Virus record (IMG/VR): IMGVR_UViG_3300017963_007659
Coordinates: 1-64,000 of that record
Source: a virus
Length of the DNA stretch: 64,000 bases
Reading direction: 5' to 3' (one strand)
The notes below the pieces were generated by a model. The model worked only from the letters and a program-made list of their open reading frames with translations. It made no database searches and was not told the DNA's origin. A program made the translations under genes and the position numbers. Every line of letters starts with the position of its first letter. The stretch's first letter is position 1. This document shows, piece after piece, positions 1 to 60,824 of the stretch.

Positions 1-843
1 TCACGCCGCAGATGAAAGACTATCGAATTCGGCCAGTTCCGAGGTCCAGCCGTGGTGCTCGATGGCTTCGCGCATGGTCTGCTTGTCGCGCTCGATGTCC
101 GCGATGATCTTGTTGAGGCGACCGACGAGCTTGGTCATCTCATCCTTGTAGCTCGTCACCCGGATGCTGTCGTAGCGCTCGCCAACTCCCTCGAAGCCTT
201 CAAGAATCTCGACCATGAGGGTGACATTTCCGTAGCGACCCGCTTCCTCATTGGTCACTGTGGAGAGGTCACTGGTGAACGACTTACGCGCCCTGTCTTT
301 GTCCCACTCTCGCACGGAGACCTCGACCTGAAGCGCTGGGTTGGTCGCGTAGACAGCCAACTGAGCTTGGACGCCATCCTTGAAGTTCTCCATGTCTCTG
401 AGCGCCTCAAAGGACCCTTCAGGGCTCTCCTGGAGCGGGAGATAGCGGGTGCCCTTGCAAGGCCCTGTGTGCCAGGAGCCTCCGTACTGACCGCGCCTAC
501 GGTCACCATGGACGTTCCATCCGTGACGGCGCATCTTGCCCGTCTTGTCCATGATGCGGTGCGGCTTGAGGCAGTAGGGACAGGTCTTCTTGAGGGCAGC
601 TTCCAGAGCCTTGACCTCAGCGATGACGACCTTGATTTCTTTCTTGATTTCGTCTTGGCGATCGAAGCCAGCGGACAGCAGCTTCTGCATCTCAGCGGCT
701 TCTTGGTCGGAGACCTTCTCACCGATGTAGAAGCCTCGGTTGATCTTGACCTGCGTGTTCCACTTGCGGATGTTGTACTTCAACTCCTTGGCTTCCGCCT
801 TGAGTTCGGAGTGCTTGGCTTTCTTTTCTTGAAGAGTTGTCAT
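1..843 (-). CDS. hypothetical early protein (CPYC/His-Cys cluster, coiled-coil N-terminus)
   Basis: ORF track 1..879; start moved to ATG 843 (MTTLQEKK) behind GGAGG and a sigma70 promoter at 864-892; TGA stop at 1-3. Confidence 0.7.
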   Translation of the reverse strand: MTTLQEKKAKHSELKAEAKELKYNIRKWNTQVKINRGFYIGEKVSDQEAAEMQKLLSAGFDRQDEIKKEIKVVIAEVKALEAALKKTCPYCLKPHRIMDKTGKMRRHGWNVHGDRRRGQYGGSWHTGPCKGTRYLPLQESPEGSFEALRDMENFKDGVQAQLAVYATNPALQVEVSVREWDKDRARKSFTSDLSTVTNEEAGRYGNVTLMVEILEGFEGVGERYDSIRVTSYKDEMTKLVGRLNKIIADIERDKQTMREAIEHHGWTSELAEFDSLSSAA

Positions 844-863
844 GCTGTCCTCCATCCACAAGA

Positions 864-892
864 ACACTACCAGAATCACCCAACCACGTCAA
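864..892 (-). promoter_or_regulatory. sigma70-type promoter TTGACG-N17-TAGTGT
   Basis: Read on the reverse strand; 17-bp spacer; same layout as promoters at 1743 and 2061. Confidence 0.75.
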
Positions 893-1308
893 CCACTTTC
901 TTCATCTGGATAATCAGGAAGCTCTTTCCAGCAGGGAACGTCCAGCTCCTCTGGGAAGCCTCCAAGCTTGTTAGGAAGACTCATCAGGAAGGAAGACCCC
1001 GCTTCGGTACCAGCGACCATGTAGCCCACCCCACCAGCCTTCAAGAATGCCTTCACCATCGCTGTACCAATGCCCTGGTCCTGCCACTCCTCGTCCACAC
1101 CAATAGCCAGCTCGTCTCCCCCGCTCTCTGTGACACCACCGATGACTGCGCCATGTTCGTTGCGCGCGACCACCACGACGGTCTCTGAGAAGTGCTGGAC
1201 TATGTTCCCTTCCTCATAGATGTCACTCAGTCCATCCAAGTCATCGTCTTCGAGGTCCAGCCCATAGATCTGCACGGTGATTGTGTAGTCATCCGACATG
1301 GTTAGCAC
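889..1308 (-). CDS. GNAT-family acetyltransferase-like protein
   Basis: Acetyl-CoA motif A: LAIGVDEEWQDQGIGTAMV (Q/RxxGxG) preceded by beta strands VVVVAR..GAVIGG. Confidence 0.6.
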   Translation of the reverse strand: MLTMSDDYTITVQIYGLDLEDDDLDGLSDIYEEGNIVQHFSETVVVVARNEHGAVIGGVTESGGDELAIGVDEEWQDQGIGTAMVKAFLKAGGVGYMVAGTEAGSSFLMSLPNKLGGFPEELDVPCWKELPDYPDEESG

Positions 1309-1742: not shown

Positions 1743-1771
1743 ACACTACAGGAATCCTCACCGATTGTCAA
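1743..1771 (-). promoter_or_regulatory. sigma70-type promoter TTGACA-N17-TAGTGT
   Basis: Consensus -35, 17-bp spacer, upstream of gene 1302-1718. Confidence 0.85.
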
Positions 1772-2060: not shown

Positions 2061-2089
2061 ACACTACAGGAATCCTCACCCCAAGTCAA
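2061..2089 (-). promoter_or_regulatory. sigma70-type promoter TTGACT-N17-TAGTGT
   Basis: Shares GGTGAGGATTCCTGTAGTGTTG with the 1743 promoter. Confidence 0.8.
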
Positions 2090-2136: not shown

Positions 2137-3285
2137 ATGGCGAATCCCGTTGTAACTCTTACCAAAGATGCTCCGAAGAGTACCGTAGCTCCGAAGAGCG
2201 CACCCTCCAATGCTCCTATCCCGAAGAAGGTGATAGACGATCCCGCGATCCGTGAGAGAGTCAACGCTCCCAAAGGGAAACTCCGATTCCTCGGTCACGG
2301 TATGTACGCCAACGTGTACGACCTCGGAGATGGGCGAGTCCTGAAGCTCACGAGAGACAAGAAAGATGCGTTCGCATTCGCCAACGTCCTCCATCGACCC
2401 TCTCCCGCGTTCGCTGTGACTCTGGATGTCTTCCAGCTTCCTGGAAAACCCAGAATATATGGAATCGTATCAGAGAAGCTCAAGCCTTTGGGAGCCAAGG
2501 AAGAAGCTGAGTGGAATGTATTCTCAGCTCTCTTCTTCTATAGGATGATCTATCCTCTGACCTATCAGGCCAATGGGATCAACTCCACATGGGCCAAGTG
2601 GGTCAAGAAGGTCCTCGACATGTGGACCAATCACGTGGTTCAGGTTGGTTGGGAGCAGCAAGACTTCCGGATGTGGCCTTTCGATGAAGGGCTCTGGATG
2701 GAACGCTTCAATCCTGGTGTCATCGACGCTATCAACACAGCCAACCTCATCGATGATTCCAAAGCGAAGTTCTTGGTTCAGGTAGCCAAGGCTTTGGAGC
2801 ACGCTCGCATCAAGTGGTGGGACCTCCACGACCAGAACATCATGCGAAGAGGTGGCGGAAAACGCATCGTCGTCGCAGATCTTGGTCTCAGCATCTCCCC
2901 GAAGGTCAAGATTCCTGTCTTGGGTAAGAGCACAGGACCGCGTGTGTTCGACGTGGCTGCGGCTGCTGAGAAGCTGGAGGGGGAAGACCAGGTGGTCGTA
3001 GCGGGAGACGAGACTCTTGAAGAGCTGGCTGAGAAGGTCCAACTCTACGCCTCGAAGCTCAAGCCGGTCACCCCGAAGCCCATCACTCCGAAACCCATGG
3101 TCAATACGCTGACGGCAAACATGCAGCAAGCTATCCGAGACCATGAGGACCGCACCATCTTCCAGTTCATCGATGATGCGGCGAAGGAAGCTGCCTTCCA
3201 ACGCAAGGTAGTCCAGGGCACTGAGAAGAAGCCTACGAAGGAAGCCATATTCACTTCAGAGACCTTGGTTGTCGTAGAAGACTGA
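2137..3285 (+). CDS. minimal protein-kinase-fold protein K1 with C-terminal extension
   Basis: LGHGMYANVY / VLKLT / WWDLHDQNIM / VADLG motifs. Confidence 0.85.
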   Translation: MANPVVTLTKDAPKSTVAPKSAPSNAPIPKKVIDDPAIRERVNAPKGKLRFLGHGMYANVYDLGDGRVLKLTRDKKDAFAFANVLHRPSPAFAVTLDVFQLPGKPRIYGIVSEKLKPLGAKEEAEWNVFSALFFYRMIYPLTYQANGINSTWAKWVKKVLDMWTNHVVQVGWEQQDFRMWPFDEGLWMERFNPGVIDAINTANLIDDSKAKFLVQVAKALEHARIKWWDLHDQNIMRRGGGKRIVVADLGLSISPKVKIPVLGKSTGPRVFDVAAAAEKLEGEDQVVVAGDETLEELAEKVQLYASKLKPVTPKPITPKPMVNTLTANMQQAIRDHEDRTIFQFIDDAAKEAAFQRKVVQGTEKKPTKEAIFTSETLVVVED

Positions 3286-3310
3286 ACCTCTCATTCTTGA
3301 AGGAGCCGCG

Positions 3311-3958
3311 ATGGCTCGAACTCTCGAACAGGCTATTGAACTGAGGGCCAAGCAAGGTGGGGGTGGGTTCACCCCCTCACAGCTCCGCACTATAGTTGAC
3401 GCTACGCTAAAAGAGGTGGATGCGACAGACGAGTCCCAACTCAAGTTCTTGGGCCAAGGATTCTTCGGGGACGTCTTCTGGTTGGGCGATAAGCGTAAAG
3501 TGCTGAAGCTCACCAACGACTACACCGACGCCTATGCCTCCGAGATTGTTCGCAGGAAGCCAGACAAGAACCTCGTCAAGGTCTATCAGGTGTTCGCTCT
3601 CGCGGACAGCTACCCAGCCGTCATCGGTATCGTCAACGAAAAGCTCTCCCCTCTTGCAAGTCACGAGCGAGCGAAGTTGGACTATCTCCGGAAGCTGTGG
3701 AACAAAGCCATAGGACAGCGTACCTTCCTCACCCGACAGAACCTCGACAAGTTCGTCGACTCCCCTCAGATAGAAGAGGTCGACGATGCGGACTACGGTC
3801 TCCTCTCGACGCTGGTGAGAGTGTTCACCGACCGGCATATCAAATGGCGAGACTTGAGCGGGGACAACATCATGGCGCGGGGACGGGAGAAGGTGGTTTC
3901 CGACCTCGGTTTCTCTGAATCCTTGAAGCAACCGATCCCGGTGCTGGTGAGGTTGTGA
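3311..3958 (+). CDS. minimal protein-kinase-fold protein K2
   Basis: LGQGFFGDVFW / VLKLT / WRDLSGDNIM / VSDLG. Confidence 0.85.
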   Translation: MARTLEQAIELRAKQGGGGFTPSQLRTIVDATLKEVDATDESQLKFLGQGFFGDVFWLGDKRKVLKLTNDYTDAYASEIVRRKPDKNLVKVYQVFALADSYPAVIGIVNEKLSPLASHERAKLDYLRKLWNKAIGQRTFLTRQNLDKFVDSPQIEEVDDADYGLLSTLVRVFTDRHIKWRDLSGDNIMARGREKVVSDLGFSESLKQPIPVLVRL

Positions 3959-4638
3959 TGACGAGCATAGCCGCAGAAAAGCTCCTCCTTCCATACTATG
4001 GGGAAGACTCCCCGAAGGTAGTCCAAACAATTGTTGACCATCTCGGAGAGAAGGACGGCAACTGGAAGTGGTTGGGAGAAGGCTCCTTCGCGAACGTCTA
4101 CTGGCTCCACGACAAAAAGAAGGCGCTGAAAATCACTCGTGACCGCAACGACGCCGATGCTTCTGAAATCATGCGGAATAAACCAGACCGCTCCGTTGTG
4201 AAAGTATACGATGTCTTCGCTCTGCCAAAGCAATACACAGACCTCTGGGGAATCGTCGTCGAGAAGCTCTCTCCGCTCAGCTACAAGGAAGGGGAAGCGA
4301 TAGCTAATCTCTACAATCTCTTATGGGACCTTGGCATAGACCAGACCCCAACCATGAAGCATGTCAAGGAGTTCAAAGAGAGGCTGGAGAACCCAGATCC
4401 CAAGAAGCACCCTATAGACAAATACATACAAGAGTACTACGACAAGAGTGGCGTCACCGAAGAGATGATCGACCGCTGGGAGACATGGGCCAAGGTCCTG
4501 GACTCCAGACACATCTACTGGAAAGACTTCAAACCAGCTAATGTCATGTCGCGCGGTCGAAATATGGTCATCTCAGATTTGGGCTACAGCAAAGTACCAC
4601 ACCAGAAGATCCCCGAGCTTCAAGTATCGGAGACGTAA
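3958..4638 (+). CDS. minimal protein-kinase-fold protein K3
   Basis: LGEGSFANVYW / ALKIT / WKDFKPANVM / ISDLG; TGATG coupling to K2. Confidence 0.85.
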   Translation: MTSIAAEKLLLPYYGEDSPKVVQTIVDHLGEKDGNWKWLGEGSFANVYWLHDKKKALKITRDRNDADASEIMRNKPDRSVVKVYDVFALPKQYTDLWGIVVEKLSPLSYKEGEAIANLYNLLWDLGIDQTPTMKHVKEFKERLENPDPKKHPIDKYIQEYYDKSGVTEEMIDRWETWAKVLDSRHIYWKDFKPANVMSRGRNMVISDLGYSKVPHQKIPELQVSET

Positions 4639-5303
4639 TGTCCATCCCTATCCTCAAAGCTCTCAGTAACAATACAGGTGAAGCAGAGTTAGCCCTGGAA
4701 GCAATAGGGCAGCGCTTGGATATAGACCCTAGAGATTACAAACGCTTCCAATGGATTGGGCACGGAGCGTATGCCGAAGTCTACTGGATTCCGGATCGAA
4801 AGCGTGTACTCAAGATCACACGTGACAATGAGGATGCTAACGTCTCTCGGTTAGTACAGAAGAAACCAGACAAAGCCTTCGTCAAAGTATATGATGTATT
4901 CGAGGTCTTCTCTTATCGTTGGGGTATCGTAGCAGAGAAGCTCACACCGATGAGCAATAGCTTGGAAATGAGCTTTGGCAGGTGTCTAGCCCTGTGTACG
5001 TTTTTGGATATAGAAGTGGTTCCTATCTCCGACATCCTAGAATTCTTCCATGATCCTAAAGTCTTGGACCAACCGGAAGTCATTGACGAGATGAAAGCTG
5101 TGAGGGTATCGCGAGAGGAAGTTGAGAGCTTCTTGAAGACACTCAGAAAATGGGAGCGGGCCTTAGACGCGCGGAATATCTTCTGGAAAGATGTCAAACC
5201 ATCCAATGTCATGATGCGAGGACGGGAACTGGTCATTTCTGACCTCGGCTACAGTGAAGCCCCACACCAGAAGATCCCCGAGCTTCAAGTATCAGGTGTA
5301 TGA
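4638..5303 (+). CDS. minimal protein-kinase-fold protein K4
   Basis: IGHGAYAEVYW / VLKIT / WKDVKPSNVM / ISDLG; TAATG coupling. Confidence 0.85.
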   Translation: MSIPILKALSNNTGEAELALEAIGQRLDIDPRDYKRFQWIGHGAYAEVYWIPDRKRVLKITRDNEDANVSRLVQKKPDKAFVKVYDVFEVFSYRWGIVAEKLTPMSNSLEMSFGRCLALCTFLDIEVVPISDILEFFHDPKVLDQPEVIDEMKAVRVSREEVESFLKTLRKWERALDARNIFWKDVKPSNVMMRGRELVISDLGYSEAPHQKIPELQVSGV

Positions 5304-5968
5304 TGCAGTGGACTTTTCCAAGAGCCTTGAATATGAAGCTCTCTGACGGGGAAGACTCCTCCGAGCTGTCCGAAGACAATCCTATTCTTGAAGCCATCCT
5401 ACAGAGACTAGGAGAGCGACAATCAAACAACTTGAAATTTCTTGGGGTTGGAGGGAATGCCTTTGCTTACTGGATGAGCGACAAACGGAAAGTCTTCAAG
5501 ATTACAGGAGACAAAACAGATGCGTATACTTCTCTGGTAGTCAGCCATAACCCATCGAAATACATAATAAAAGTACACGACGTTTTTGCTATAGATGAAA
5601 AAAAGTACATTTGGGGTATAGTAACAGAAAAGTTGACTCCGCTCACGGCAGAAGCGAAGAAGAGTCTCAAGAGGATCATCAGCATCTGTGAAGCGCAGTC
5701 TCTGACAAGGACAAACCGCCTCCTTGAAGCCCGCATAAAGTATCAAGAGAACCTTTTGTTGTCTGGAGAAAAGGCGCAAGTGACGCAAGAAGATTTGGAC
5801 CTTTTGCAACATTATATCAATGACTTAGATGCCCGTGGTATCCGATGGGGTGCCGACTTTTATCCAGATAACGTTCTCATGCGCCGACAGACCCCTGTCA
5901 TCTCTGATTTAGGAGTCAGCAGCTCCCCACGGATGTCGATGCCTAAGCTTCAAGTATCGGAGACGTAA
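5300..5968 (+). CDS. minimal protein-kinase-fold protein K5
   Basis: LGVGGNAFAYW / VFKIT / WGADFYPDNVL / ISDLG. Confidence 0.8.
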   Translation: MMQWTFPRALNMKLSDGEDSSELSEDNPILEAILQRLGERQSNNLKFLGVGGNAFAYWMSDKRKVFKITGDKTDAYTSLVVSHNPSKYIIKVHDVFAIDEKKYIWGIVTEKLTPLTAEAKKSLKRIISICEAQSLTRTNRLLEARIKYQENLLLSGEKAQVTQEDLDLLQHYINDLDARGIRWGADFYPDNVLMRRQTPVISDLGVSSSPRMSMPKLQVSET

Positions 5969-6660
5969 TGTCTGCCTTTGAATACATTATTAGGCGCAAG
6001 CTAGACGATGTAAACCTCTTACAGAAGGTGGACTTGGACGCGATTCTTGAAGATATCAAGATGCGGCTGGGGGAGAAAGACCTCGCGAGAATTGGGAATT
6101 TAGGCTCTGGAAGCTGGGCTTCCGTTTTCTGGCTATCCAATAGACGCAAAGTCGTCAAGGTCACGCATGACCCACAGGATGCTCAGGCGTCAGCGGTCGT
6201 CCTCAAACGCCCAAGCAAGTACCTCGTCAAAACTTATGATGTCTTCGCTCTCACTCCTGACAAATATACCGTCTACTGCATCGTCAACGAGAAGTTGACT
6301 CCTCTGGGACGCAGAGAAGAGCTACTCATCCCTGTCTTATTGCGTCTCTTGAAACAGAGCGGGCAGAATCACAGCATCACTATGGAAACCTATGATGCGA
6401 TTATAAAGCTGTTGGAGAAATTTCGCGGACGCGACTGGAAGTCCTGGCTGAATTCCTATCTGGCGGCACAACACCTGAACATGGACGCGGACAGTTTCAT
6501 GGACTTCTACAAGAATATGGCGGAAGCCCTCGACTCCCGTGGTATCCGTTGGTGGGATATCAAGAAAGCCAACTTCATGATGCGGGGACATCAGATCGTC
6601 ATCTCCGACCTCGGAGCTGGTACGGTAACAGGAGCCCCGAAGATCCCCTCCCTCACCTGA
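5968..6660 (+). CDS. minimal protein-kinase-fold protein K6
   Basis: LGSGSWASVFW / VVKVT / WWDIKKANFM / ISDLG. Confidence 0.85.
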   Translation: MSAFEYIIRRKLDDVNLLQKVDLDAILEDIKMRLGEKDLARIGNLGSGSWASVFWLSNRRKVVKVTHDPQDAQASAVVLKRPSKYLVKTYDVFALTPDKYTVYCIVNEKLTPLGRREELLIPVLLRLLKQSGQNHSITMETYDAIIKLLEKFRGRDWKSWLNSYLAAQHLNMDADSFMDFYKNMAEALDSRGIRWWDIKKANFMMRGHQIVISDLGAGTVTGAPKIPSLT

Positions 6661-6681
6661 AAACACAAGTTACCTGTCTCC

Positions 6682-7074
6682 ATGACAACGTTACCTCTGA
6701 GCCTCTCTGCCTATCTCCAGCGGAAAGAGACGCCAGACCTACCAGAATCTCTCGCACCTCTCCACGAAGCCCTCTACTCTATCAAAGCCCTCACCATCTC
6801 CGGTGTGTACTTCCTCCTACGAGACGAAGAAGTCGTCTACGTCGGACAGAGTTCCAACGTCGCACAGCGCATCGCGGCTGGCCACCCGGAGAAGGAGTTC
6901 GATGACGCAGTGTGTCTATTGGTACCACAGGAACAGCTTCTTGAAGTGGAGGCAGCTTTCATCTCAGCTCTGAACCCTCTCTATAATAGGACAGCGCTCC
7001 CCAAGGGCAGCTACAAGAATGCCCAAACCCTCCGTATCCTAGACCAATACGGTTGGGACATCGAAGACTTTTGA
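6682..7074 (+). CDS. small GIY-YIG nuclease-domain protein
   Basis: SGVYFLLRDEEVVYVGQSSNVAQRI...E...I...NPLYN. Confidence 0.7.
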   Translation: MTTLPLSLSAYLQRKETPDLPESLAPLHEALYSIKALTISGVYFLLRDEEVVYVGQSSNVAQRIAAGHPEKEFDDAVCLLVPQEQLLEVEAAFISALNPLYNRTALPKGSYKNAQTLRILDQYGWDIEDF

Positions 7075-7114
7075 TAAGTTATCTAGTAGAGAATTCTTGT
7101 ATTTGGAGTTGAGC

Positions 7115-8077
7115 ATGAACACGTCAGACGTCGCGAAGGTAGCTCTCAAGCTTCTTGAAGCTGGAATGAAGGATGAGGCACAGCAGATTCTTGAAGGGGC
7201 TACGAAGGTGGCTTTCGGATGGAAGAAGCTCCCCAAACATTTCCCTCAGTCCGGATTGGAGTGGCAGGAGTTTCTTATCACTCTCAACGATATCCTCGTG
7301 AAAAACAAGCACCAACGAGGACGCATTCCGTATATCAAGAACAGTGTCTACAAGAAAGATGTCATCGACCCCATATTCGAGAACATCATTGCCTACAAGA
7401 AGAAGCAGCCCTGGTTCCGCTTGCAGAAGCACTCCTCTGCGCAACTCATAAAGGACCTTCAAAGGTCTCCGCACTGGAGACTGTTCGAGAAATCAGGGAA
7501 GAGGGTTCTCTTTACCACAAAAAAGGAAGCCAAGGATCGTATCTCCAAGAGGGATGACCTGGTGTTCGTAGCAGACGTGCGCCCCACCAAGGACATTGTT
7601 GCTCTGTATCTTGCGCACCTAGAGGTGCTAGGCACCCCTCTGTTCCCTCTTCTGAACCAATTTGATAGAATACCAACGAAGACTGAAGGGTATCCAGAGG
7701 GAACTGCCTTCCATTGGGTATTCGATGACACCGTAATGGGGAATGACCCAACTCTTGAAAGGGGGCATGACGCTGCGGGCATTGCTGTTTGGATCGTTCA
7801 GAAAGACCCTTCAAGTAGGCAGCAGTACAAAGAGACGGTACAAGAAATGCTGTCACGTGTGCTCGACCACGCACAAGGACAGGCACGTACAGCCTATGAA
7901 CACAGCGACACCCAAGTTCCTTACAAGGAGTGGTTGAAAACCTTCTATTATGATGTCTTCTTTGACCACGAGAGCTACTCGAAGCTTCACCCTTATGACA
8001 AAAAGCTCTTGAAGTCATTTTTCGAGCCTCAAACAAAATATGGTTTCTATATGGGACTAACAATCTCATCCTTGTAG
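7115..8077 (+). CDS. leader-family protein (KLLEAGMKDEA leader), unknown function
   Basis: Start MNTSDVAK at 7115 behind GGAG; leader shared with 8086, 8956, 10180. Confidence 0.7.
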   Translation: MNTSDVAKVALKLLEAGMKDEAQQILEGATKVAFGWKKLPKHFPQSGLEWQEFLITLNDILVKNKHQRGRIPYIKNSVYKKDVIDPIFENIIAYKKKQPWFRLQKHSSAQLIKDLQRSPHWRLFEKSGKRVLFTTKKEAKDRISKRDDLVFVADVRPTKDIVALYLAHLEVLGTPLFPLLNQFDRIPTKTEGYPEGTAFHWVFDDTVMGNDPTLERGHDAAGIAVWIVQKDPSSRQQYKETVQEMLSRVLDHAQGQARTAYEHSDTQVPYKEWLKTFYYDVFFDHESYSKLHPYDKKLLKSFFEPQTKYGFYMGLTISSL

Positions 8078-8085
8078 AGGACACC

Positions 8086-8952
8086 ATGAGACACGCCAGA
8101 GTAGCCAAGACGGTTCTCAAGCTTCTTGAAGCGGGCTACAAGAATGAAGCTCAACAGCTTCTTCTCTCCTCGATTAGGGCTGCGAGCCAAGGCACACAGA
8201 TGTTGAAGGGCCTCCTCTCCTACCTGTCCATGTCAGAACTTGATCGTCACATTGAACTGATATACGGGTCAGAATTCTTTGTGAGAGAGTATTCGTCAGT
8301 CATCCAACAGACTCTTGCAGACCCTAAAGTTTCTCCGAAAGCCAAGCAGGAGCTGTCCTCCCTTTCTGATGACACATATCTGACGGAGCTGTCCCAACAG
8401 ACGATCGAAACGGTAGCGAAGCACATTACTGAGAAGGAACTACAACAAATCCTATCCGCTATTGAGAGATATGAACCCGGTGAAACCCCCCTCTGGGCCG
8501 CCGCCAGTCTCAATTCTAACCGTATTCAAAAAGGATGGCTTCTTCATCGAACAAATAATGCCGACCAGATAGAATCAAACGGATTCCTGTATGGGATTGA
8601 GGACATGCGTCTTCTAGCGCTCACAACTCATATAGGAGACGCCTACAAGAAACAGGGGGGCTACAACTTCGCCTTCACACCCAAGGACTTCAAGCACTAC
8701 GGTAGGCGAGGGCATTATGGGGATGAACTAATTCTGTTCTACGCTCCCTATGTCTACATGCACCATTATGCCGATGACGAGCCTCAAGCCGTCTTCTGGG
8801 GGAAAGATGCTGAACACATCCAGCAGGTCTATGAGGATGATGGGTATTACACTATTCTTGTAGAAGACAAAGATGGGGAAGAAGACGAAGTTGAAGTCTC
8901 TGATATAGCGGACCTCATCGATGTGGTAAGAAAATCAACAGGGAAGCGTTAA
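8086..8952 (+). CDS. leader-family protein with ADP-ribosyltransferase-like C-terminal domain
   Basis: KLLEAGYKNEA leader; WLLHRTNNADQIESNGF...GGYNFAF resembles the H-T..I..G signature of the ART fold. Confidence 0.5.
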   Translation: MRHARVAKTVLKLLEAGYKNEAQQLLLSSIRAASQGTQMLKGLLSYLSMSELDRHIELIYGSEFFVREYSSVIQQTLADPKVSPKAKQELSSLSDDTYLTELSQQTIETVAKHITEKELQQILSAIERYEPGETPLWAAASLNSNRIQKGWLLHRTNNADQIESNGFLYGIEDMRLLALTTHIGDAYKKQGGYNFAFTPKDFKHYGRRGHYGDELILFYAPYVYMHHYADDEPQAVFWGKDAEHIQQVYEDDGYYTILVEDKDGEEDEVEVSDIADLIDVVRKSTGKR

Positions 8953-8955
8953 GTT

Positions 8956-10149: not shown

Positions 10150-10179
10150 CCTGCCCGCCAAGAGTTATCTATACCCAAG

Positions 10180-13183: not shown

Positions 13184-13185
13184 GT

Positions 13186-50531: not shown

Positions 50532-50592
50532 GGCTATTTCTTTCAAGATAAACTAGTCAAAGTACATAGCTAGAGAAAAGGAGCTTGATCGT

Positions 50593-50922: not shown

Positions 50923-50950
50923 CCCTACCCTCTACCTACCGACGGGGAAC

Positions 50951-50958
50951 GGTTATCT
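50951..50958 (+). promoter_or_regulatory. candidate late promoter element GGTTATCT
   Basis: After a C/T-rich tract, 10 bp upstream of ATG 50968. Confidence 0.5.
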
Positions 50959-50967
50959 GAAAGTGTA

Positions 50968-51825: not shown

Positions 51826-51864
51826 CTTATAGAGAGCCTAGACCATTGACAAAAGAGTGAGATC

Positions 51865-53382: not shown

Positions 53383-53387
53383 GACCG

Positions 53388-53633
53388 ATGGCTCTAGTAC
53401 ACCTCAGACAAGCTACAGTCCAGACCTCTGTGACTGTCAATACCCTTCAAGTTGTGTATGAAACCTATGATGTTCTAACGGATCCCTGCGTATTTGCCCA
53501 AGCTGACCAAACCAAGATTCTCGCCGATGCAGGGCTACCAGAAACACTGTCATGGGACTCATGTACAGTAGTTTCTCACTCCATCGTCGGGCGTACCAAC
53601 AGGTATGTGCTCGACGTTGTTGTGTCGGGTTAA
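53388..53633 (+). CDS. hypothetical protein
   Basis: Start MALVHLRQ at 53388 within track ORF 53340..53633. Confidence 0.5.
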   Translation: MALVHLRQATVQTSVTVNTLQVVYETYDVLTDPCVFAQADQTKILADAGLPETLSWDSCTVVSHSIVGRTNRYVLDVVVSG

Positions 53634-53636
53634 TAA

Positions 53637-54188
53637 ATGGCACCTGATACGCTTCAAGGCGGATTCACCGCTGCTGCTCCAGATTCCTCTCAGTTTGAGG
53701 AAGATGACGACCGCGAAGTCACCGCCATCACAGCTCTAGAAATCGAAACGACCAAGACAAAAGAGACGTTGGCTCGAATGCGGGACTCGAATATCGCACA
53801 TCCAATCGCCTCTGCAGCAGGGAGGATGCCAACACCACCCCCCTCCTCGCTGACACCTGATGGCTCCTGGAACACCAGAGCCATCTACAACAACCATATC
53901 TTTGACATTGGAATGGCCCGAACTCTCTTCAAGGACCAGCCGCTACGCCTTGACCGAGCTATCGAACAGATAGTAAAGAGGATCGATGTTGTAACAAAGG
54001 TTAATATAACATTAATTGAGGGGGAACTCACAATCGTGTCGGACTCTTCTCGGCACCGTTCTTTGGAGGCTCCTGGTTTGGTGGTGGCATTCTCTCGCTA
54101 CACTACTGATTTCAGTACTGTAGAGCTGACGGCTACAAGCGAACGAACACGCCTCCTGATTATTGTCTGGAGAGAAGATGACGTCTAG
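53637..54188 (+). CDS. hypothetical protein
   Basis: ORF in operon. Confidence 0.6.
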   Translation: MAPDTLQGGFTAAAPDSSQFEEDDDREVTAITALEIETTKTKETLARMRDSNIAHPIASAAGRMPTPPPSSLTPDGSWNTRAIYNNHIFDIGMARTLFKDQPLRLDRAIEQIVKRIDVVTKVNITLIEGELTIVSDSSRHRSLEAPGLVVAFSRYTTDFSTVELTATSERTRLLIIVWREDDV

Positions 54189-54807
54189 GTCGCGAAAACG
54201 CGACCAAAAACAGTCTGCTGGCAATAATTTAGGGAATTCCGATATGTCCGATATGGAGAAGTTTGCCCTACTGCTAGAGCAGCGTGACAAAATACAAGCG
54301 GAAGCTCGTAAGGCAAACGAAGCAGCACAACAAGAGGCGCAGAAACGTCTCATTCAGGTTCAGACGGACAGCACGCAGAATCTTGCTGACGTGGCGAACT
54401 CGCTCGCGAAGGTTCATGGGGCGCAGCAAGACGCGCACGACGTTCTAGGAGCTGTTGAGAAAGCTATCGTAGAACATGACAACGCGCTGAGACGCCATAT
54501 TGACGCTATGAAGCAACGAAACAAAGAACAAGACCGCGAGCGAGACAGACTCGAAACAACAGTCGTAGCAGGCTGCACAGGCTGCCAAGATACGCAGAAG
54601 ACAAGCTCTCTGGCAATCATCGAAGTCATGGGGAAGGTCGAAAGCGCGATCAAAGACCAAACCGCAGCGACCAATAAACTTGTAGAGAAGCAGGTCAGTC
54701 TAGGTAAGATTCTGGGCTCCATCATCACGGTATCTGGAGCTTTGGCGGTACTAATCGGGGCTATTCTGGCAATGATTAAGCTCTTCAGCAGCACACCTCC
54801 TTCCTGA
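54178..54807 (+). CDS. coiled-coil protein with C-terminal transmembrane helix (holin/antiholin-like)
   Basis: C-terminal ILGSIITVSGALAVLIGAILAMIKLF; adjacent to holin. Confidence 0.45.
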   Translation: MTSRSRKRDQKQSAGNNLGNSDMSDMEKFALLLEQRDKIQAEARKANEAAQQEAQKRLIQVQTDSTQNLADVANSLAKVHGAQQDAHDVLGAVEKAIVEHDNALRRHIDAMKQRNKEQDRERDRLETTVVAGCTGCQDTQKTSSLAIIEVMGKVESAIKDQTAATNKLVEKQVSLGKILGSIITVSGALAVLIGAILAMIKLFSSTPPS

Positions 54808-54813
54808 TAGACA

Positions 54814-54821
54814 GGTTACCT
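54814..54821 (+). promoter_or_regulatory. candidate late promoter element GGTTACCT
   Basis: 25 bp upstream of ATG 54846. Confidence 0.5.
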
Positions 54822-54845
54822 TTCTGTGAAAAGGAGTCCTGTCAC

Positions 54846-55454
54846 ATGTCTAGAAACTTCCCCAAGATTCTCGGTCTCTTGACCTTCCCGGTCATCTTCC
54901 TGTTCTCCATGGTCGCATTTGGACAGCCTTGTCCAGATGTCGACGTTCAAGTAGTCAATGAAGCCGTTGCGCAGCAAGAATGGTGGATGGTGCTTCTCGA
55001 CGCGCTGCTCCAACTCGTAGCGCCCATCGTCATCGGTGTTTTGGGAACCTTGGCGAGCATCGCGATTCGTAAATGGGGGAAGAAGCTCGACGTAGACACG
55101 CAGGACCGCTTCATCGGTCTCACCCAAAACCTCATCTCTTCCGGCGTAGCTTTCGCGGAAGAGCAGGGACGCAAAGCGCTGAAGGTAGGGGAAGCGCAGA
55201 CAGATGGTGCACGGAAGCTCCAACACGCTGTGGACTACATCCAAGAGCAGCTTGAAGAGTCTCGACTCCCTCAGATGGGAACGGAGAAGCTCGAACGTCT
55301 CATTGAGTCCAGACTCCATGCAGAACGTGCGAATCCAACAGGCTCTGTCCCAAGCGACCCTTCAGACCCAGAAAACGTCTATACTATTGAACTTCCAGTT
55401 GAATCCACCACAGCGGAGACAACACCAGAACCAGAACAAACAGACGAGGAGTAA
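54846..55454 (+). CDS. LL-H family-like phage holin
   Basis: TM helix then SGVAFAEEQ...G.RKLQHAVDYI...L...IES pattern. Confidence 0.6.
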   Translation: MSRNFPKILGLLTFPVIFLFSMVAFGQPCPDVDVQVVNEAVAQQEWWMVLLDALLQLVAPIVIGVLGTLASIAIRKWGKKLDVDTQDRFIGLTQNLISSGVAFAEEQGRKALKVGEAQTDGARKLQHAVDYIQEQLEESRLPQMGTEKLERLIESRLHAERANPTGSVPSDPSDPENVYTIELPVESTTAETTPEPEQTDEE

Positions 55455-55460
55455 TCGTCA

Positions 55461-56024
55461 ATGTCTACAAGAATGACATCAGCCAAGGACGAGCTTCTGC
55501 TTGACCTCACTATGGAAACCGCTACTGTGCTAAGAGAAGTCCGTGAGTCTCTAGAGCAGGAGTATGATGGCAAAGTAGCGTCAGTGAACGCACAGATTCT
55601 TGAAGCGGAAAAGACCGCTGCTTCGTCAGCCATCGAGAAGCTGATCAAGAAGCATCCAGGGGCATGCAAAGTCTTCTCTGGAGGAGGAGGAGGAATAAAG
55701 GGGCTGGCGAAGAAAGCCAAGAAGCTCAAGAATGCCGTCCAGAAGATGGACTCCAAGACGGAGAAAGAACGAAAGACAGCAGGAGCAGTCGTACTGACAA
55801 CCATACTTTTTTTCGCTGGTTATCCCTTAGCGGGGTTTACTGGACCATGGCTCGCGGACGCGAATTGGAAAATCCTCAAGTGGCAAGGCAAGCAAGTCTA
55901 CAAAGCTATGGACTGGCTGCTCAAGAATGCAGAGGATGTGGGCAGTGGGATCAAAGACCTGTGCAAGGATGTCAAACCCGCGCTTCCAGACAAGATGGAG
56001 AAGGTCATGAAAGAGTCCAAGTAG
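55461..56024 (+). CDS. hypothetical protein with one hydrophobic segment
   Basis: ORF; AVVLTTILFFAGYPLAG. Confidence 0.55.
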   Translation: MSTRMTSAKDELLLDLTMETATVLREVRESLEQEYDGKVASVNAQILEAEKTAASSAIEKLIKKHPGACKVFSGGGGGIKGLAKKAKKLKNAVQKMDSKTEKERKTAGAVVLTTILFFAGYPLAGFTGPWLADANWKILKWQGKQVYKAMDWLLKNAEDVGSGIKDLCKDVKPALPDKMEKVMKESK

Positions 56025-56043
56025 GATGCCACTTATTGAGTGT

Positions 56044-56051
56044 GGTTATCT
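56044..56051 (+). promoter_or_regulatory. candidate late promoter element GGTTATCT
   Basis: 23 bp upstream of ATG 56074. Confidence 0.5.
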
Positions 56052-56073
56052 TTGTGTGTAGTGAGATAATGAT

Positions 56074-56394
56074 ATGATAGCCCTACTCATTTGGACGAAG
56101 ATCAAACTTGTTCTAAAGAAGTATTGGATCTTCTTTGTATCCGGACTTCTTGCAGTTCTATCAGTTCTAGCTTGGGTCTTCATGCGCCCCTCAAAGAAAC
56201 CCATCCACATCGTAGTGAAGGATAAACGAGAGGAAACACACCGAAAACTCGCAGAAGCTGAAGCAAAAGCTGCTATCGAGATTGGACGGGCACAGGGTAG
56301 AGAAGAAGCGGTTCAAATAGAGGTTGAGAACATCAGGCAGGAACCGGATAGCCGGAAACGGCGTGAGCGTCTTGCAGCTCTTTTAGCGAGGTAG
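56074..56394 (+). CDS. N-terminal TM + coiled-coil protein (i-spanin-like)
   Basis: YWIFFVSGLLAVLSVLAWVF followed by a charged coiled coil; near holin. Confidence 0.4.
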   Translation: MIALLIWTKIKLVLKKYWIFFVSGLLAVLSVLAWVFMRPSKKPIHIVVKDKREETHRKLAEAEAKAAIEIGRAQGREEAVQIEVENIRQEPDSRKRRERLAALLAR

Positions 56395-56399
56395 TCATC

Positions 56400-56672
56400 A
56401 TGACAGATACACAACGAAGAGACGCAGGACTATGGGAAGACCTTGGAGGTAAGGGGTCTACCTCCGTTGCTGCTCCTGTCAAAGCTCAGCCAAACGGGAA
56501 TGCCGACGACCTAGCTCCTGTGCGCCCCTTTGAGGGCAATGATACCCCCAATCTCATGCGACTCTATCGTGCTCTGATGACAGTGAGTCGACATGGTCCT
56601 TTGACATCGCAACCAGCTCGTCTGCTCGTCAAGCTCATCCAAGAGCTACTGCAACGAGGCGAAAAGATATGA
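56400..56672 (+). CDS. hypothetical protein
   Basis: ORF with GAGG RBS. Confidence 0.55.
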   Translation: MTDTQRRDAGLWEDLGGKGSTSVAAPVKAQPNGNADDLAPVRPFEGNDTPNLMRLYRALMTVSRHGPLTSQPARLLVKLIQELLQRGEKI

Positions 56673-57148
56673 AACTGCTACAGTGGACAACCATCATCGG
56701 GGTCCTCATTCTCCTCCCTACCATCTGTAGGGCAGAAGAGGACACGAGTACTGTCAGTGCATCTCCCTATGAGGAGGCACCGCAGTTCAACCCGATTCCT
56801 CTGGATGAAGGAGAAGCCGCTCCCTTAGATGGGCTACTGATTGACGAGCGTACAGGAATGGAGCTAGCTCTCCTACGAGCGAGCGACCTTCGCCTGAGAA
56901 CGGAACTTGAAGTACGTCTGGACCTTTGGGAAGAGCAGGAGACCATTTACGAAAATGCTCTTGCAAGCCTTCAGAGCCAAGTAGAGACGTTGACGACGGA
57001 GCTGGCAGGGAGAGAGCCTTCGTGGTGGAATCGCTACGGAGGAGTGGTCCTAGGCACCATAGGATTTGTGGTGGGGGCTGCTGTAACGATTCTTGTAGCA
57101 TGGGCTGTAGCTGAAGCAGTTACCCCTGATACTGTAACAGCAGAGTGA
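56669..57148 (+). CDS. exported protein with coiled coil and C-terminal TM (spanin-like)
   Basis: Signal-like N-terminus, heptads, GVVLGTIGFVVGAAVTILVAWAV. Confidence 0.4.
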   Translation: MKLLQWTTIIGVLILLPTICRAEEDTSTVSASPYEEAPQFNPIPLDEGEAAPLDGLLIDERTGMELALLRASDLRLRTELEVRLDLWEEQETIYENALASLQSQVETLTTELAGREPSWWNRYGGVVLGTIGFVVGAAVTILVAWAVAEAVTPDTVTAE

Positions 57149-57158
57149 AGGACCACTA

Positions 57159-57959
57159 ATGGCAACTACAGTCGAACTCACGATCTTGACGAGAGGGTGG
57201 CTATATATAGGGAGTTCCTACAAGATTGCCCCTCAGAAGTCCCTTGTCCTCGTGATGACAAAGGTGCTTCGTGATGAGGAATTGGCATACCTTGTCTACA
57301 GGTTCGCAGAAGAAGGAAAGCTCTTTGGACGTTTGGATGGCGCGCTCGTACCTCCCTTGGATTTGCTCCTCGAATTCACGGACCCCATGTCCACTTCGAG
57401 GGGTACAGAGTTTCCTCCAGATGCTCCGATTGGGAAGTTTTTCTTCAGGACAGACCTCGGTCCTGCTGGCGAGATGTATCTTCGGAACAATACTGGATGG
57501 CTGAACCTGACGCCTACACCTATCGCGCACGGAGCTACACACCTTCCCATCGCTTTTGGCGGGACGGATCCTATTCCTGGTTTGGAGAGGCTCCAAGACA
57601 CCTACGCCTGTACGCTAGCCGAAACGGTACTCGACCTTGTCTACCAATCGGCTGGAAATACCGTTGAGCGTGCCGACGCTTCGGGCCTAGCAACTATGCC
57701 CTCTATAGGATTCATTGAGAGCAAAGGGACACCAACATCGTGTCTTGTGACTACGAGTGGTATCCTTTCTGGCTTCTTGGTTAAATATGCAGGAGGGGGT
57801 GGTTTGTCTCCGGATACAACGTACTATGCAGACCCATTGAATCCGGGGTTAATTACGAATGTACCCCCTGTAGTACCGGGACAAGTTTTCCAGCGTATTG
57901 GCTACGCTAAGAACACTGATGAGCTGTTGGTTGAGATCGACGCTCACATTCTCTTGTAG
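57159..57959 (+). CDS. virion protein with C-terminal decoration/cement-like domain
   Basis: LVYQS...ERADA...IGF...G...YY..PG.IT..PP..G...QRIG; homologous to the C-terminus of 58566. Confidence 0.45.
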   Translation: MATTVELTILTRGWLYIGSSYKIAPQKSLVLVMTKVLRDEELAYLVYRFAEEGKLFGRLDGALVPPLDLLLEFTDPMSTSRGTEFPPDAPIGKFFFRTDLGPAGEMYLRNNTGWLNLTPTPIAHGATHLPIAFGGTDPIPGLERLQDTYACTLAETVLDLVYQSAGNTVERADASGLATMPSIGFIESKGTPTSCLVTTSGILSGFLVKYAGGGGLSPDTTYYADPLNPGLITNVPPVVPGQVFQRIGYAKNTDELLVEIDAHILL

Positions 57960-57970
57960 AGGAGAGAGAC

Positions 57971-58240
57971 ATGCCACGACCTTTTCCAGTTCTTTCGTCC
58001 GCTGATAAAGCTGCCCATGCCGCTGAGACCTTCACAGCGACGTTCAGATACATTGGAACGAATCCTCCCATTGCAGCAACCGGGAAATACATCATGAAGT
58101 GTACGGGTTATGACGGGACACTACATGAGATTGAGCATGGAACTGAGAACTTTGAGGTCACAGACCCAAGAGTCGCTCGCTGCTTGGAGCTGCACATCGA
58201 CTACTTCACCAAAGAGCTAGACTACGAGCGCGTGGTCTAA
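57971..58240 (+). CDS. hypothetical protein
   Basis: GAGGAG RBS. Confidence 0.6.
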   Translation: MPRPFPVLSSADKAAHAAETFTATFRYIGTNPPIAATGKYIMKCTGYDGTLHEIEHGTENFEVTDPRVARCLELHIDYFTKELDYERVV

Positions 58241-58249
58241 GAGGCTATC

Positions 58250-58552
58250 ATGACGAAAGTGAAGATGGAGTATAGAGGAGAATCAAAAAGGGTGAAACTC
58301 CCTTCTGGCTTGCACACCGCAGATCGAACCGAGATGTTCATGGTAGCCGACGTAAAAACCGGCGACATAGCAGAATTTGAGGACGAACGAACCCTTCAGT
58401 TCGTCAAACTTGCTCGCTGTCAAGATGGATCCAGTGCTTGGGTCAATATCGCTAGTGCAGCGGATGTAACTGTCACATTTACACCCATTCAACCGAAAGC
58501 CCCAAGTCGGCGCACGTCCTGGAAATCACGTGGCGGACGGGCGAAGAAGTAA
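58250..58552 (+). CDS. hypothetical protein with basic tail
   Basis: GAGG RBS. Confidence 0.6.
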   Translation: MTKVKMEYRGESKRVKLPSGLHTADRTEMFMVADVKTGDIAEFEDERTLQFVKLARCQDGSSAWVNIASAADVTVTFTPIQPKAPSRRTSWKSRGGRAKK

Positions 58553-58565
58553 AGGAGACTGACCC

Positions 58566-60695
58566 GTGGCAGATTATCCCCCCCTGGTACTCGTCGCTGG
58601 TGTCCGACAGCAACTCCAAGCTGCCGACACGGTGCTGGCGAATGGAATCACTGCGAGAACAGGTACAAACCTGGCTCTTACTGCGGATGGTGGACAACTC
58701 GTTACCATCCCCGCTAACGTTGACCTCCAGTTTGGTGCTGTAGATAGTCAGATTGGTAGTGCTGGTGCGCTGATCGAAGTTCAGAACCTTCTGGACAAGA
58801 CCGATGCCGAGACTATCACAGGTGCATGGACCTACAACAACAACATCGCGTTTGACAATGGTACCCGTACTATTGCTGGTATCCAGAATCAGAACCTCGT
58901 CGACAAGACGGCTGCTGAAACCATTACCCAGGGAGTGGGTGACTCATGGAACTTCATCTCCTCTGGAGATAATACGAGTCCCAACCTCTCCGTGCAGGCG
59001 ACAGCAGCACAGGAAGCCTCAACCAACCGCGTCCTCTTCCAGGTTCTCGCGAGTGGTGGTGGCAACCTCTTCTCCGTCGACTCCGAAGGTGACGTGCAGG
59101 TTGCTGGTTCCGAGACCGTCTCCGGTGCGAGCACGGTTGTTGGTACAGCCAACTTCCAAGGCGACGTCAACCTCGGTAACGGTGGTGACGCCATCGCTAT
59201 CGGTTCCGGTCCAACGGATACCGTAACTTTCGGTGGCCCGATCACCATCACGATTCCGGATACCGAGAACTGGACCGCGATCACCATCGACAACAACGAC
59301 TCGACCAATGAGCCGGATGCTTTCCGTGTTCATGGTGCGAACACCGACACCATCCGCGTCGATTACGACGAGGTTGAGGTCAACACCACGGCGGGTGACT
59401 TCGATGTCAACTCCGGTGGTGCCATCACGATGGACGCAGCGAGTGCCTCAAACCTGACGGTCACAGGTGCCACGCTGACTCTCGCAAATACTGGCGCAAA
59501 TGAACTGGACATCACCTCTGGTGGTCTCTTGGACATTAACGCTGGAGCGAACCTCGACGTGGACGCCACTGGAACCATGGCGTTCAACTCGACAGACACC
59601 ACGAACCTCACCATGCTAGCGTCAGATGCTGCCACGAAGACTTTGACCATCGCAGCAAACAACGCCATTGGTGACGCGGTCCTAGCCCTCTCGTCCAACG
59701 CGGGTGCAGGCTCTGCTATTACCTTGGACACAGGCGCAGCCGACATCGATATCACAGCGGCTTCTGGTACTGTGGACATCGACGCTGGAGTAAGTGTTCA
59801 GATCGACTCGACGGGGGGTCTGGTAGACATTGGTGGTGGTAACATCACTCTCGACGCCACCGTCGGAATCTCCCTCGACGCAGGCGGTGCCTCGAACTTC
59901 ACCGTCACCGGTAACACGCTGACCCTCTCCAACACAGGTGCCAATGAGTTGGACATCACCTCTGGTGGTCTCCTGGATATCAATGCGGGTGCAAACCTCG
60001 ACATCGACGTCACTGGCTCCTTCGATATGCTCGCTTCAACCACCTTCGCCATCTCCGGTACTGGCGCTTCTTCGGTGAACGCTACCTCGGGTACACTCAC
60101 TCTGTCAAGCACCACGTCTGGAGACGTCGCTGTTGACTCGGCAGCCGAGATCCTGTTTGACGATACGAACCGCTCTGGTTCTACGTGGGCAGCCACTTCG
60201 GTGAAGCTCACAGAGACCACTGGTGAGTGGGATACCTACGAGTCGAACTTCGGAGAGGTCTCCATCTTCAACGCTCTCAACCAGGCGTACTCCGCTGCTG
60301 GTGGAGCGGTGCAAGAGGTTCTGCTTCAGTCTCTCACGACGGCGGGTATGGCTGCTGGCGATATCGCCTATCTGTCTGCCAATGACACTGTTCTGCAAGC
60401 TGACGCTGACAGCACTTTGGGCGTAGCGAGAGCGATGGGTGTCTACAATGGAACCGCTCGAGAGGTCGTAATTCAGGGGCGCGTTGACGTGACTTTGAAT
60501 GACGGGGTTACTCCCAGCGCGGGTGCCCCCATCTACGTGTCCACTGTAGCTGGACGCGGTACGGCTACGGCTCCTTCTGGGTCTGGTGAGTATGTCACCT
60601 GCATCGGTTATGTCGTCGACAACACCGGCTACGCTGCTACCCCTGGTAACACCGTAGAGATTCTCCTTGGAATCGAGCGACCTGTCCTCGTCTAA
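58566..60695 (+). CDS. fibre-like virion protein with internal repeats and decoration-like C-terminal domain
   Basis: GTG start behind AAGGAG; duplicated ASN.TVTG.TLTL.NTGANELDITSGGLLDINAGANLD; C-terminal GDIAYL...ADAD...GAPIYVST..G..T.TAPSG. Confidence 0.6.
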   Translation: MADYPPLVLVAGVRQQLQAADTVLANGITARTGTNLALTADGGQLVTIPANVDLQFGAVDSQIGSAGALIEVQNLLDKTDAETITGAWTYNNNIAFDNGTRTIAGIQNQNLVDKTAAETITQGVGDSWNFISSGDNTSPNLSVQATAAQEASTNRVLFQVLASGGGNLFSVDSEGDVQVAGSETVSGASTVVGTANFQGDVNLGNGGDAIAIGSGPTDTVTFGGPITITIPDTENWTAITIDNNDSTNEPDAFRVHGANTDTIRVDYDEVEVNTTAGDFDVNSGGAITMDAASASNLTVTGATLTLANTGANELDITSGGLLDINAGANLDVDATGTMAFNSTDTTNLTMLASDAATKTLTIAANNAIGDAVLALSSNAGAGSAITLDTGAADIDITAASGTVDIDAGVSVQIDSTGGLVDIGGGNITLDATVGISLDAGGASNFTVTGNTLTLSNTGANELDITSGGLLDINAGANLDIDVTGSFDMLASTTFAISGTGASSVNATSGTLTLSSTTSGDVAVDSAAEILFDDTNRSGSTWAATSVKLTETTGEWDTYESNFGEVSIFNALNQAYSAAGGAVQEVLLQSLTTAGMAAGDIAYLSANDTVLQADADSTLGVARAMGVYNGTAREVVIQGRVDVTLNDGVTPSAGAPIYVSTVAGRGTATAPSGSGEYVTCIGYVVDNTGYAATPGNTVEILLGIERPVLV

Positions 60696-60824
60696 ACCAA
60701 CCCAGCCCTTACCTCCCAACACTTCAAGAATATTGGTTATCCTTTCTACAAGAGACTGATACCTCTGTCTCAAACTGGATTAGTCAATGTATGTTGACTG
60801 GTAGAAACTCAGGAAAGGAAGCCT

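Follow-up and report, generated by a model that had tools for sequence, protein, structure and literature searches.

The 64-kb stretch of phage DNA analysed here (the window) is strewn with copies of the 10-bp word ATTCTTGWAG, which raises the question of what this word is selected for and which protein may read it. A preliminary description had listed 48 copies and had noted that they lie on both strands and in various frames, that 34 of them fall into the first 25.3 kb and that the long structural genes are poor in them. All 48 coordinates are exact copies; with four more, at 11483, 11876, 27749 and 28016, the full count is 52, 36 of which lie within the first 25.3 kb, and the contrast between gene blocks holds as well:

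198..60731, both strands: ATTCTTGWAG, dispersed, 52 exact copies by exact-match count (25 +, 27 −), mostly intragenic
2137..30909, plus strand: block richest in the motif (1.15 ten-mers per kb coding DNA), with kinase paralogues and leader-bearing proteins
32620..60695, plus strand: motif-poor tail/baseplate genes, 0.29 copies per kb (value for the entire block, which extends past the window)
8992..9015: two copies in inverted orientation, separated by 4 bp, encoding ILEAGYKN in an N-terminal leader common to paralogous proteins
near 8122-8145 and 10222-10245: inverted pairs like that at 8992..9015

Selection on the word at the DNA level

The source is a large marine jumbo phage, PaBG/RSL1-like, whose record is about 50% complete. 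In this 186-kb record the word occurs 134 times (68 +/66 −), i.e. once per ~1.4 kb on average, compared with 1.8 copies expected from an order-2 Markov model; the dispersed copies are ~75-fold enriched, and the reversed control word is found on neither strand (0/0). Coding DNA holds 117 copies as opposed to 5.4 ± 2.4 in protein-preserving synonymous shuffles (maximum 11, n = 40), 12.8 if the following base is preserved too and 1.0 if codon order is shuffled. The proposed excess far above chance thus persists in codon-preserving shuffles, as does the claim that selection acts on DNA rather than on protein. Although the codons in question are ordinary, codon-pair bias or an assembly artefact as the source of the excess is already refuted by the synonymous shuffles (22-fold), and the word is also present in five frames, in non-coding DNA and in independent contigs and absent from a close relative; as contigs from two public runs differ from positions 1-20000 of the window at only two places, it does not stem from assembly.

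Copies occupy five of the six frame/strand classes, the sixth being empty since the word would contain a stop there. About 87% are intragenic, with no bias as to gene direction (sense/antisense counts of 119/125 and 27/24) or position within the gene. No helical phasing was found, spacing is irregular (CV 1.0-1.2; same-strand gaps of up to 6 kb) and there is no genome-scale strand skew (68/66; 20-kb bins). According to the mismatch profile of the copies the CTTGWAG core is strict, whereas the 5' ATT is graded. The word is commoner in genes of low conservation (rho −0.48, p 0.03) and inflates the tripeptides FKN/YKN six-fold, i.e. it is selected strongly enough to reshape the phage's proteins. 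A literature search for the exact words found no paper, and wider searches on such motifs brought up nothing that concerns this system.

Turnover of the word among relatives

Five relatives, all partial, were compared. Three share ATTCTTGWAG (capsid 77-81% identical), one (contig L131) seems, from its sequence, to use the variant TACTTGWAG, and one lacks ATTCTTGWAG (the motif-minus phage). Individual sites turn over, with only 5 shared among 26 and 23 aligned 8-mer sites, whereas word density is similar in diverged relatives, so that the conservation looked for among related genomes exists for density and mostly not for sites. This similar density, together with the excess that outlasts synonymous shuffling, supports a genome-wide recognition signal at the DNA level. 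Such a signal had been proposed, and this part stands; modification or self-marking and DUS/HIP1-type signals, also proposed, fit poorly, and replication was not among the options listed. Sharing of the word, likewise raised, extends to the three relatives; in ~500 bacterial genomes sampled from two candidate phyla the word is not enriched. A capsid tree is compatible with a single gain of the word as well as with other histories.

In 35 kb of the motif-minus relative no replacement word was found, the hint of CTACGAG being weak. Querying IMG/VR with capsid, terminase and Prim-Pol as well as with the origin pattern yielded no further relatives, and promoter-pattern matches proved to be chance matches. 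A putative TerS, a sigma-4-like gene and their neighbour are conserved to the same degree in motif-plus phages as in motif-minus ones and thus do not discriminate between them. Both groups avoid the same restriction sites, which suggests similar hosts.

A focal cluster at a Prim-Pol-like gene

Outside the window, at ~103.4 kb of the record, copies are concentrated at the 3' end of a gene for a Prim-Pol-like protein (P0031). The densest CTTGTAG window in 194 kb lies here (103,250; 6 per 600 bp, next best 3), and between 102,224 and 104,502 six T-form copies on the minus strand are followed by seven on the plus strand (13/0), a strand switch that is the genome's top at all three window sizes. 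Three AAAGTC-N4-GACTTT palindromes, spaced 32 + 17 bp, are found at the locus and at no other place in the genome as perfect copies; they are kept in a relative, where the equivalent place also holds 5 T-form copies within 600 bp (p 3e-5). At the end of its Prim-Pol-like gene, the putative variant-word phage has two copies of its own word in inverted orientation. As in iteron origins, a repeat cluster lies at a candidate initiator gene and is conserved in relatives, and this layout suggests that the locus may be an origin; by the orientation of the word, forks that move away from the switch point would carry it on their lagging template.

Focal cluster, strand switch, conserved palindromes and the inverted pair of the variant phage all argue for a role in replication. 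This role is weakened by the polarity being local only (far field 210/173), by a genome-wide maximum test of polarity that is not significant alone (p 0.06-0.6), by the switch point having been picked by eye and by part of the right-hand cluster coding for ILV in a small membrane protein. GC content around the switch is 42-51%, an AT-rich unwinding element is not seen there, and GC skew changes sign near 100 kb, but tracks gene direction.

Same-strand repulsion

Among copies separated by 30-600 bp, same-strand pairs are under-represented both in this phage (z −2.5/−2.6) and in a relative (z −2.3 to −2.9), the two phages together giving z −3.1 (p ~0.001), with no clear effect beyond 600 bp, whereas 69 control words gave a mean z of +1.2 and a minimum of −2.4 in the same test. 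Leaving out the Prim-Pol locus does not abolish the depletion (z −3.1 to −3.35). It was predicted from a model in which the word serves replication and thus argues for this role; on the other hand, the repulsion is carried by the A-form (z −2.7) and not by the T-form (−0.1), whereas the polarity at the locus resides in the T-form, and this discrepancy and the irregular spacing weaken it. Opposite-strand neighbours are in excess rather than avoided, which by inference rules out nicking sites.

The candidate reader

P0031 belongs to the PF09250 family (profile match, E 8e-13), with the pRN1 ORF904 primase as top fold match (E 0.016). The domain following the Prim-Pol part is modelled as all-helical (pLDDT 78.6) and resembles the pRN1 bundle weakly (Z 5.7, rmsd 3.3, 87 aligned), tied with unrelated bundles. 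Motif I (hhhDhD/E) is essential for AEP catalysis (PMC4538821). In P0031-P0033 its first Asp is replaced by Gly, whereas 59/59 aligned wider homologues have D/E at this position; motifs II and III are intact. Because of this missing Asp the protein is probably not the priming enzyme, and an initiator or loader is more likely than an active primase. In the record, which covers about half of the genome, searches for DnaG and RecA-like genes gave no match. A DnaB-like helicase is encoded by the phage. Identity of the protein to its relatives tracks the word (48% for the same word, 42% for the variant, 35% for none). The presence of a PF09250 protein at the locus and this tracking speak for replication, the missing Asp, the lack of a DnaG or RecA-like gene in this half of the genome and the Prim-Pol-like gene that the motif-minus phage also encodes against it. 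Judged from sequence, P0031 is the top candidate reader of the word.

A possible signal for replication initiation

Based on these findings we speculate that ATTCTTGWAG is a strand-specific signal for replication initiation or re-priming, with a probability of roughly 0.45. The word would be a polar signal for phage-encoded replication machinery, the focal copies at the 3' end of the Prim-Pol-like gene forming an origin-like array. The Prim-Pol-like protein, a putative ColE2-Rep-like primase derivative with a predicted helix bundle, would attach to the site, loading or directing helicase/primase. Dispersed copies may then be used as secondary initiation or re-priming sites, every ~0.8-1 kb per strand, and both strands would be served, as later replication would start at many places.

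DnaA boxes and lambda-type iterons form opposed arrays within the initiator gene. The phage word shares with them opposed focal arrays, dispersed copies and promoter overlap, but no AT-rich element is seen at the switch and its dispersed copies are ~75-fold enriched. AEP/Prim-Pol initiators, including phage NrS-1 polymerase (TTTGGTTA, GTG), likewise recognize an asymmetric word with a strict 3' part, with opposed sites in a candidate origin that adjoins the rep gene. However, their known sites are few and origin-confined, or too short for enrichment, whereas here hundreds are spread over both strands of a jumbo genome, and the phage protein, for which word binding is a prediction, lacks one catalytic Asp. 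The predicted order of Prim-Pol followed by a helical bundle would also match these initiators, which further comprise ColE2 Rep, RSF1010 RepB' (ssiA/ssiB) and pRN1 ORF904 (PMC4538821, PMC5862659, PMC8718748). At primase sites the bases that template the primer lie 5' of the recognized word (PMC8718748, PMC6163395), and the strict 3' core and graded pyrimidine-rich 5' flank of the phage word resemble such sites, which lends further support to replication.

The series of relatives with the same, a variant or no word and the conserved locus narrow the search to one candidate protein and one 400-bp segment (103.3-103.7 kb of the record). To our knowledge, proteomes reshaped by a dispersed word have been described for bacterial uptake sequences but not for phages, and we know of no phage reader. 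If true, replication would be licensed by a phage-encoded, self-specific system across the whole chromosome, and an orthogonal origin and priming system would be on offer. A further reading, which we regard as somewhat unlikely, is that in one clade of jumbo phages a catalytically dead Prim-Pol serves as a private, sequence-specific replication licence. It would read a word of 7-10 bp both at the origin and at hundreds of sites that alternate between strands, with the effect that only phage DNA is primed or restarted, site selection rewriting the proteome and word and reader co-diverging between lineages.

Alternative readers

The main rival is an operator or nucleoid-type site, at which a putative phage dsDNA-binding protein would shut off early promoters and coat or organize the chromosome in the manner of stoperators or P1 C1; we regard this as unlikely. 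It draws on copies at early promoters:

21472..21481, minus strand: perfect copy, overlaps a sigma70-type early-promoter −10 (TTGACA at 21497-21492)
19858..19867, plus strand: perfect copy in the spacer, adjacent to the −35 (TTGACC at 19872-19867) of an early promoter on the minus strand, opposite orientation
867..876, minus strand: one-mismatch copy ATTCTGGTAG, in register with an early-promoter −10
1746..1755, minus strand: one-mismatch copy ATTCCTGTAG, in register with an early-promoter −10
2064..2073, minus strand: one-mismatch copy ATTCCTGTAG, in register with an early-promoter −10

A copy within one mismatch occurs in 14/16 early-promoter candidates (12.8% of random 70-bp windows) and a perfect one in 6/16 (4.4%), but the promoters are near-copies of one cassette and hence not independent, most of their copies are mismatched in the otherwise strict core and a similar promoter-like spacer exists in the motif-minus relative. 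The word takes other positions in two promoters and is reversed in the relative's orthologous promoter, and its graded profile is typical of a binding protein; a non-polar binder, however, does not predict same-strand repulsion, and the largely intragenic location of the word, indifferent to gene direction and position, also speaks against this rival. Neither an HU or SprT-like gene nor, by Pfam sweeps, a cognate repressor gene was found in the ~50% complete record. L5/Bxb1 stoperators number ~30, are oriented with transcription and are mostly intergenic. Like these and P1 C1 operators, the phage word is asymmetric, genome-wide and overlaps early promoters, but unlike stoperators it is intragenic and random to gene orientation.

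Less probable still is a Chi/KOPS-like polar signal for a helicase-nuclease or translocase of host or phage that protects phage DNA ends. The word is short, asymmetric, over-represented and apparently strand-acting, as Chi and KOPS are, polar action would likewise give diminishing returns on one strand, and host differences could explain the differing relatives. Nevertheless, the phage encodes its own SbcC-like nuclease, and the word is not G-rich, has no genome-scale skew and is not enriched in the 502 + 5 bacterial genomes sampled: the 502 from two candidate phyla reach at most ~41/Mb as opposed to 719/Mb, and no enriched genome is among the 120 GTDB and ~90 viral pair matches listed. Peptidase M3, used for host placement, has its best matches in Planctomycetota, at no more than 31-34%. 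Moreover, the common restriction-site avoidance suggests similar hosts for motif-plus and motif-minus phages, and the cluster at the Prim-Pol gene is not explained. The DNA uptake sequences of Pasteurellaceae and Neisseria are graded 9-10-bp words on both strands and intragenic, and like the phage word they favour poorly conserved genes and inflate matching tripeptides (PMC2817400). However, this inflation is two-fold rather than ~six-fold (PMC2817400), and the phage has no known uptake step, no terminator inverted pairs and no enriched counterpart among the bacterial genomes sampled; a host signal of the DUS/HIP1 type fits poorly.

A target of a phage methyltransferase or another DNA-modifying self-mark is quite improbable: three N6/N4 methyltransferases and ArdC are encoded and restriction-site avoidance is strong, but the avoided palindromes would be the natural methyltransferase targets, the word, asymmetric and graded, is not of the all-or-none kind, and neither repulsion nor focal cluster is explained. 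Hardly credible is a seed target of the phage's nuclease-dead TnpB (TldR-like). Its gene ends in one copy, and the strict and decaying sides of the word resemble TAM plus seed, but the likely guide, located ~80 nt upstream of that copy behind the TTCAA right end, has no second match in the record, and the substitution expected to give an rU-dG wobble is the least tolerated (2 copies, background).

A genome-wide word under selection at the DNA level

The dispersed word ATTCTTGWAG (reverse complement CTWCAAGAAT) is a real and strong feature of this phage. Every one of the 48 copies claimed in the preliminary description is exact, the window holds four more, and the whole record (186,314 bp, starting with the 64 kb of the window) contains 134 (68+/66-), versus 1.8 expected from an order-2 Markov model; the reversed control word is absent from the record. 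The proposal that selection acts on DNA is supported by the suggested enrichment check, i.e. 117 coding copies versus 5.4 in synonymous shuffles preserving every protein. CTTGWAG (488 copies) constitutes the strict core, in which single substitutions reduce the copy number to near background, and the 5' ATT is graded, changes at these positions being still 9-24-fold enriched, except those to G (1-5-fold). Copies show neither helical phasing, nor an orientation bias relative to gene direction, nor a preferred position in genes. No earlier description of the word was found in the library searched.

The phage was found in metagenomes of sediment and seawater, and the record is ~50% complete (CheckV). 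Its capsid, terminase and portal fall into PHROG families common to PaBG, phiRSL1 and Yoloswag-type jumbo phages (capsid identity 31-34%). Beyond the record end, phage sequence runs on in a further contig (L348:1-7621; metallophosphoesterase, DUF5662 and a split peptide-release-factor-like gene), and as motif density is still high there (7 copies), the 'provirus' label of the record is probably an effect of trimming rather than host DNA.

The word shapes the phage proteome: FKN/YKN occurs 41 times (7 expected) and is motif-spelled in 40 cases, and IL[EV][ADEGV] occurs 62 times (14.5 expected), motif-spelled in 49. Conserved genes have a lower motif density (rho -0.48), as do tail genes, and active tnpB has zero density. 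Paralogous proteins (window 7097-11757 and others to ~51000) have a common KLLEAGYKNEA-like N-terminal leader, possibly a capsid-targeting signal, and its DNA contains an inverted motif pair. Numerous short protein-kinase-like paralogues, four passing Pfam Pkinase, lie at window 3311-28933; a 26-kb contig present in two public runs has short kinase-gene pieces in common with the window, in different order, which points to additional paralogues or to a related phage co-occurring with this one.

Window 4119, 13351-13388, 14271-14312, 15415-15458: kinase-gene pieces common to the 26-kb contig

Conservation in relatives

Six close capsid relatives (77-85%) were found. The 92.6-kb relative (42% G+C) carries 23 copies in 30 kb, with 17 versus 1.4 in shuffles for the A-form (W = A), and two short relative contigs carry 3 and 5 copies in 2.6 and 3 kb, respectively. 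Of the eight-mer sites in aligned genes, 26 in this phage and 23 in the 92.6-kb relative, only 5 are common to both; thus, of the conservation expected among related genomes, density is kept and individual positions turn over. In 28.6 kb of the motif-minus relative (59.5% G+C) there is a single copy, and no other word was found to take its place. In one further sample, two contigs, assigned to one putative variant phage by sample, G+C and site avoidance alone, contain TACTTGWAG 6 times versus 0.39 expected (post hoc). All relatives compared, motif-plus and motif-minus, avoid GAGCTC and TTCGAA, which suggests similar hosts. Among ~500 bacterial genomes of two candidate host phyla, none exceeds ~41 copies per Mb, versus 719 in the phage.

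Across the record GAGCTC, TTCGAA, CTCGAG, CCGCGG, CGTACG, CTGCAG and CAGCTG are avoided almost totally, as is non-palindromic CATCAA (15 vs 100), and the phage encodes three N6/N4 methyltransferases and ArdC.

A possible replication signal and its candidate reader

We tentatively regard the word as a sequence-specific replication signal spread genome-wide (probability about 0.45). If each strand needed a site at intervals, a nearby second same-strand site would add little. In a spacing test made after this hypothesis was formed, same-strand pairs were rarer at 30-600 bp (z -2.5 in this phage, -2.7 in the relative; pooled z -3.1, lower than all 69 control words); at longer distances neither phage shows a clear effect. 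The depletion is modest (42-45% same-strand), is carried by the A-form and persists with the focal locus removed; the test cannot separate same-strand repulsion from inverted-pair preference.

The candidate reader is a Prim-Pol-like protein composed of PF09250 and an all-helical domain weakly resembling the pRN1 helix bundle, its family occurring in these phages and otherwise in a few distant relatives only. In NrS-1 a helix bundle recognises the priming word, with synthesis beginning just 5' of it (PMC8718748), and ColE2 Rep, related in layout to the phage protein, uses PriCT-1 and HTH domains to bind its origin and unwind it (PMC5862659, PMC4538821). The phage protein lacks the first motif I Asp, which sets it apart from active Prim-Pol systems, and we therefore read it as a putative site-recognising initiator or loader rather than a priming enzyme. 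A search of the available half of the genome found no DnaG. As the motif-minus phage also has the gene, more diverged (35%), possession of the gene is not enough to account for the word.

Record 101,826-103,619: Prim-Pol-like gene, with the genome's densest T-form (CTTGTAG) cluster at its 3' end
Record 103,570, 103,602, 103,619: AAAGTC-N4-GACTTT palindromes

At this locus six minus copies precede seven plus copies, a polarity that fades past 1.3 kb, with a switch point picked by eye. The relative has the same T-form cluster and the same palindromes at identical spacing (32+17), a few left-hand focal sites probably being common to both phages by descent. Where the Prim-Pol-like gene of the putative variant phage ends, two copies of that phage's own word stand in inverted orientation. 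The locus is a putative origin, its layout resembling one within an initiator gene. The three conserved 16-bp palindromes overlap the Prim-Pol stop codon (contigs L003:3569-3634 and L358:3312-3376), and each half resembles the middle-promoter element.

Promoters and alternative roles

The main rival, which we consider unlikely, is that the word is an operator or organiser site. An operator role is supported by early sigma70-type promoters, where the word or a one-mismatch form ends in the first three -10 bases: 14 of 16 have a copy within one mismatch and six a perfect one, two have the word at another place, and in the relative the orthologous promoter carries it in reversed orientation. As early promoters are near-copies of one another and a similar promoter spacer occurs in the motif-minus phage, part of this overlap may be promoter consensus. 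Middle and late promoters, of which 4/21 and 4/29 have a copy within one mismatch, show no clear excess over background (12.8%). By analogy with DnaA, a single protein with both replication-initiation and operator roles, one protein could serve both functions here. Stoperators differ from the word in orientation. The proposed likeness to DNA uptake sequences holds for statistics only, and that to Chi or KOPS fails on strand skew (68+/66- in the record).

Window 37823, 50553, 62095, with about 18 others elsewhere in the record: YYAGTCAAAG middle-promoter-like element
Window 2109, 6668, 7077, 10163, 23553, 29294, 32553, 39957, 50951, 54814, 56044, 62691: GTTAYCT late-promoter-like element

The middle element is preceded by an A-rich tract, often lies 4 nt upstream of a start codon and in two cases follows directly on a near-copy of the motif. 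Immediately behind a middle promoter lies an apparently nuclease-dead TnpB (contig L004:8562-9743), the likely guide of which is matched nowhere else in the available sequence. In relatives of both kinds, motif-plus and motif-minus, the late element also precedes structural genes. A Cys-rich protein with a sigma-70 region-4-like HTH (contig L006:4304-5185), likewise kept in both kinds of relative, is, as a lead only, a candidate middle or late transcription factor.
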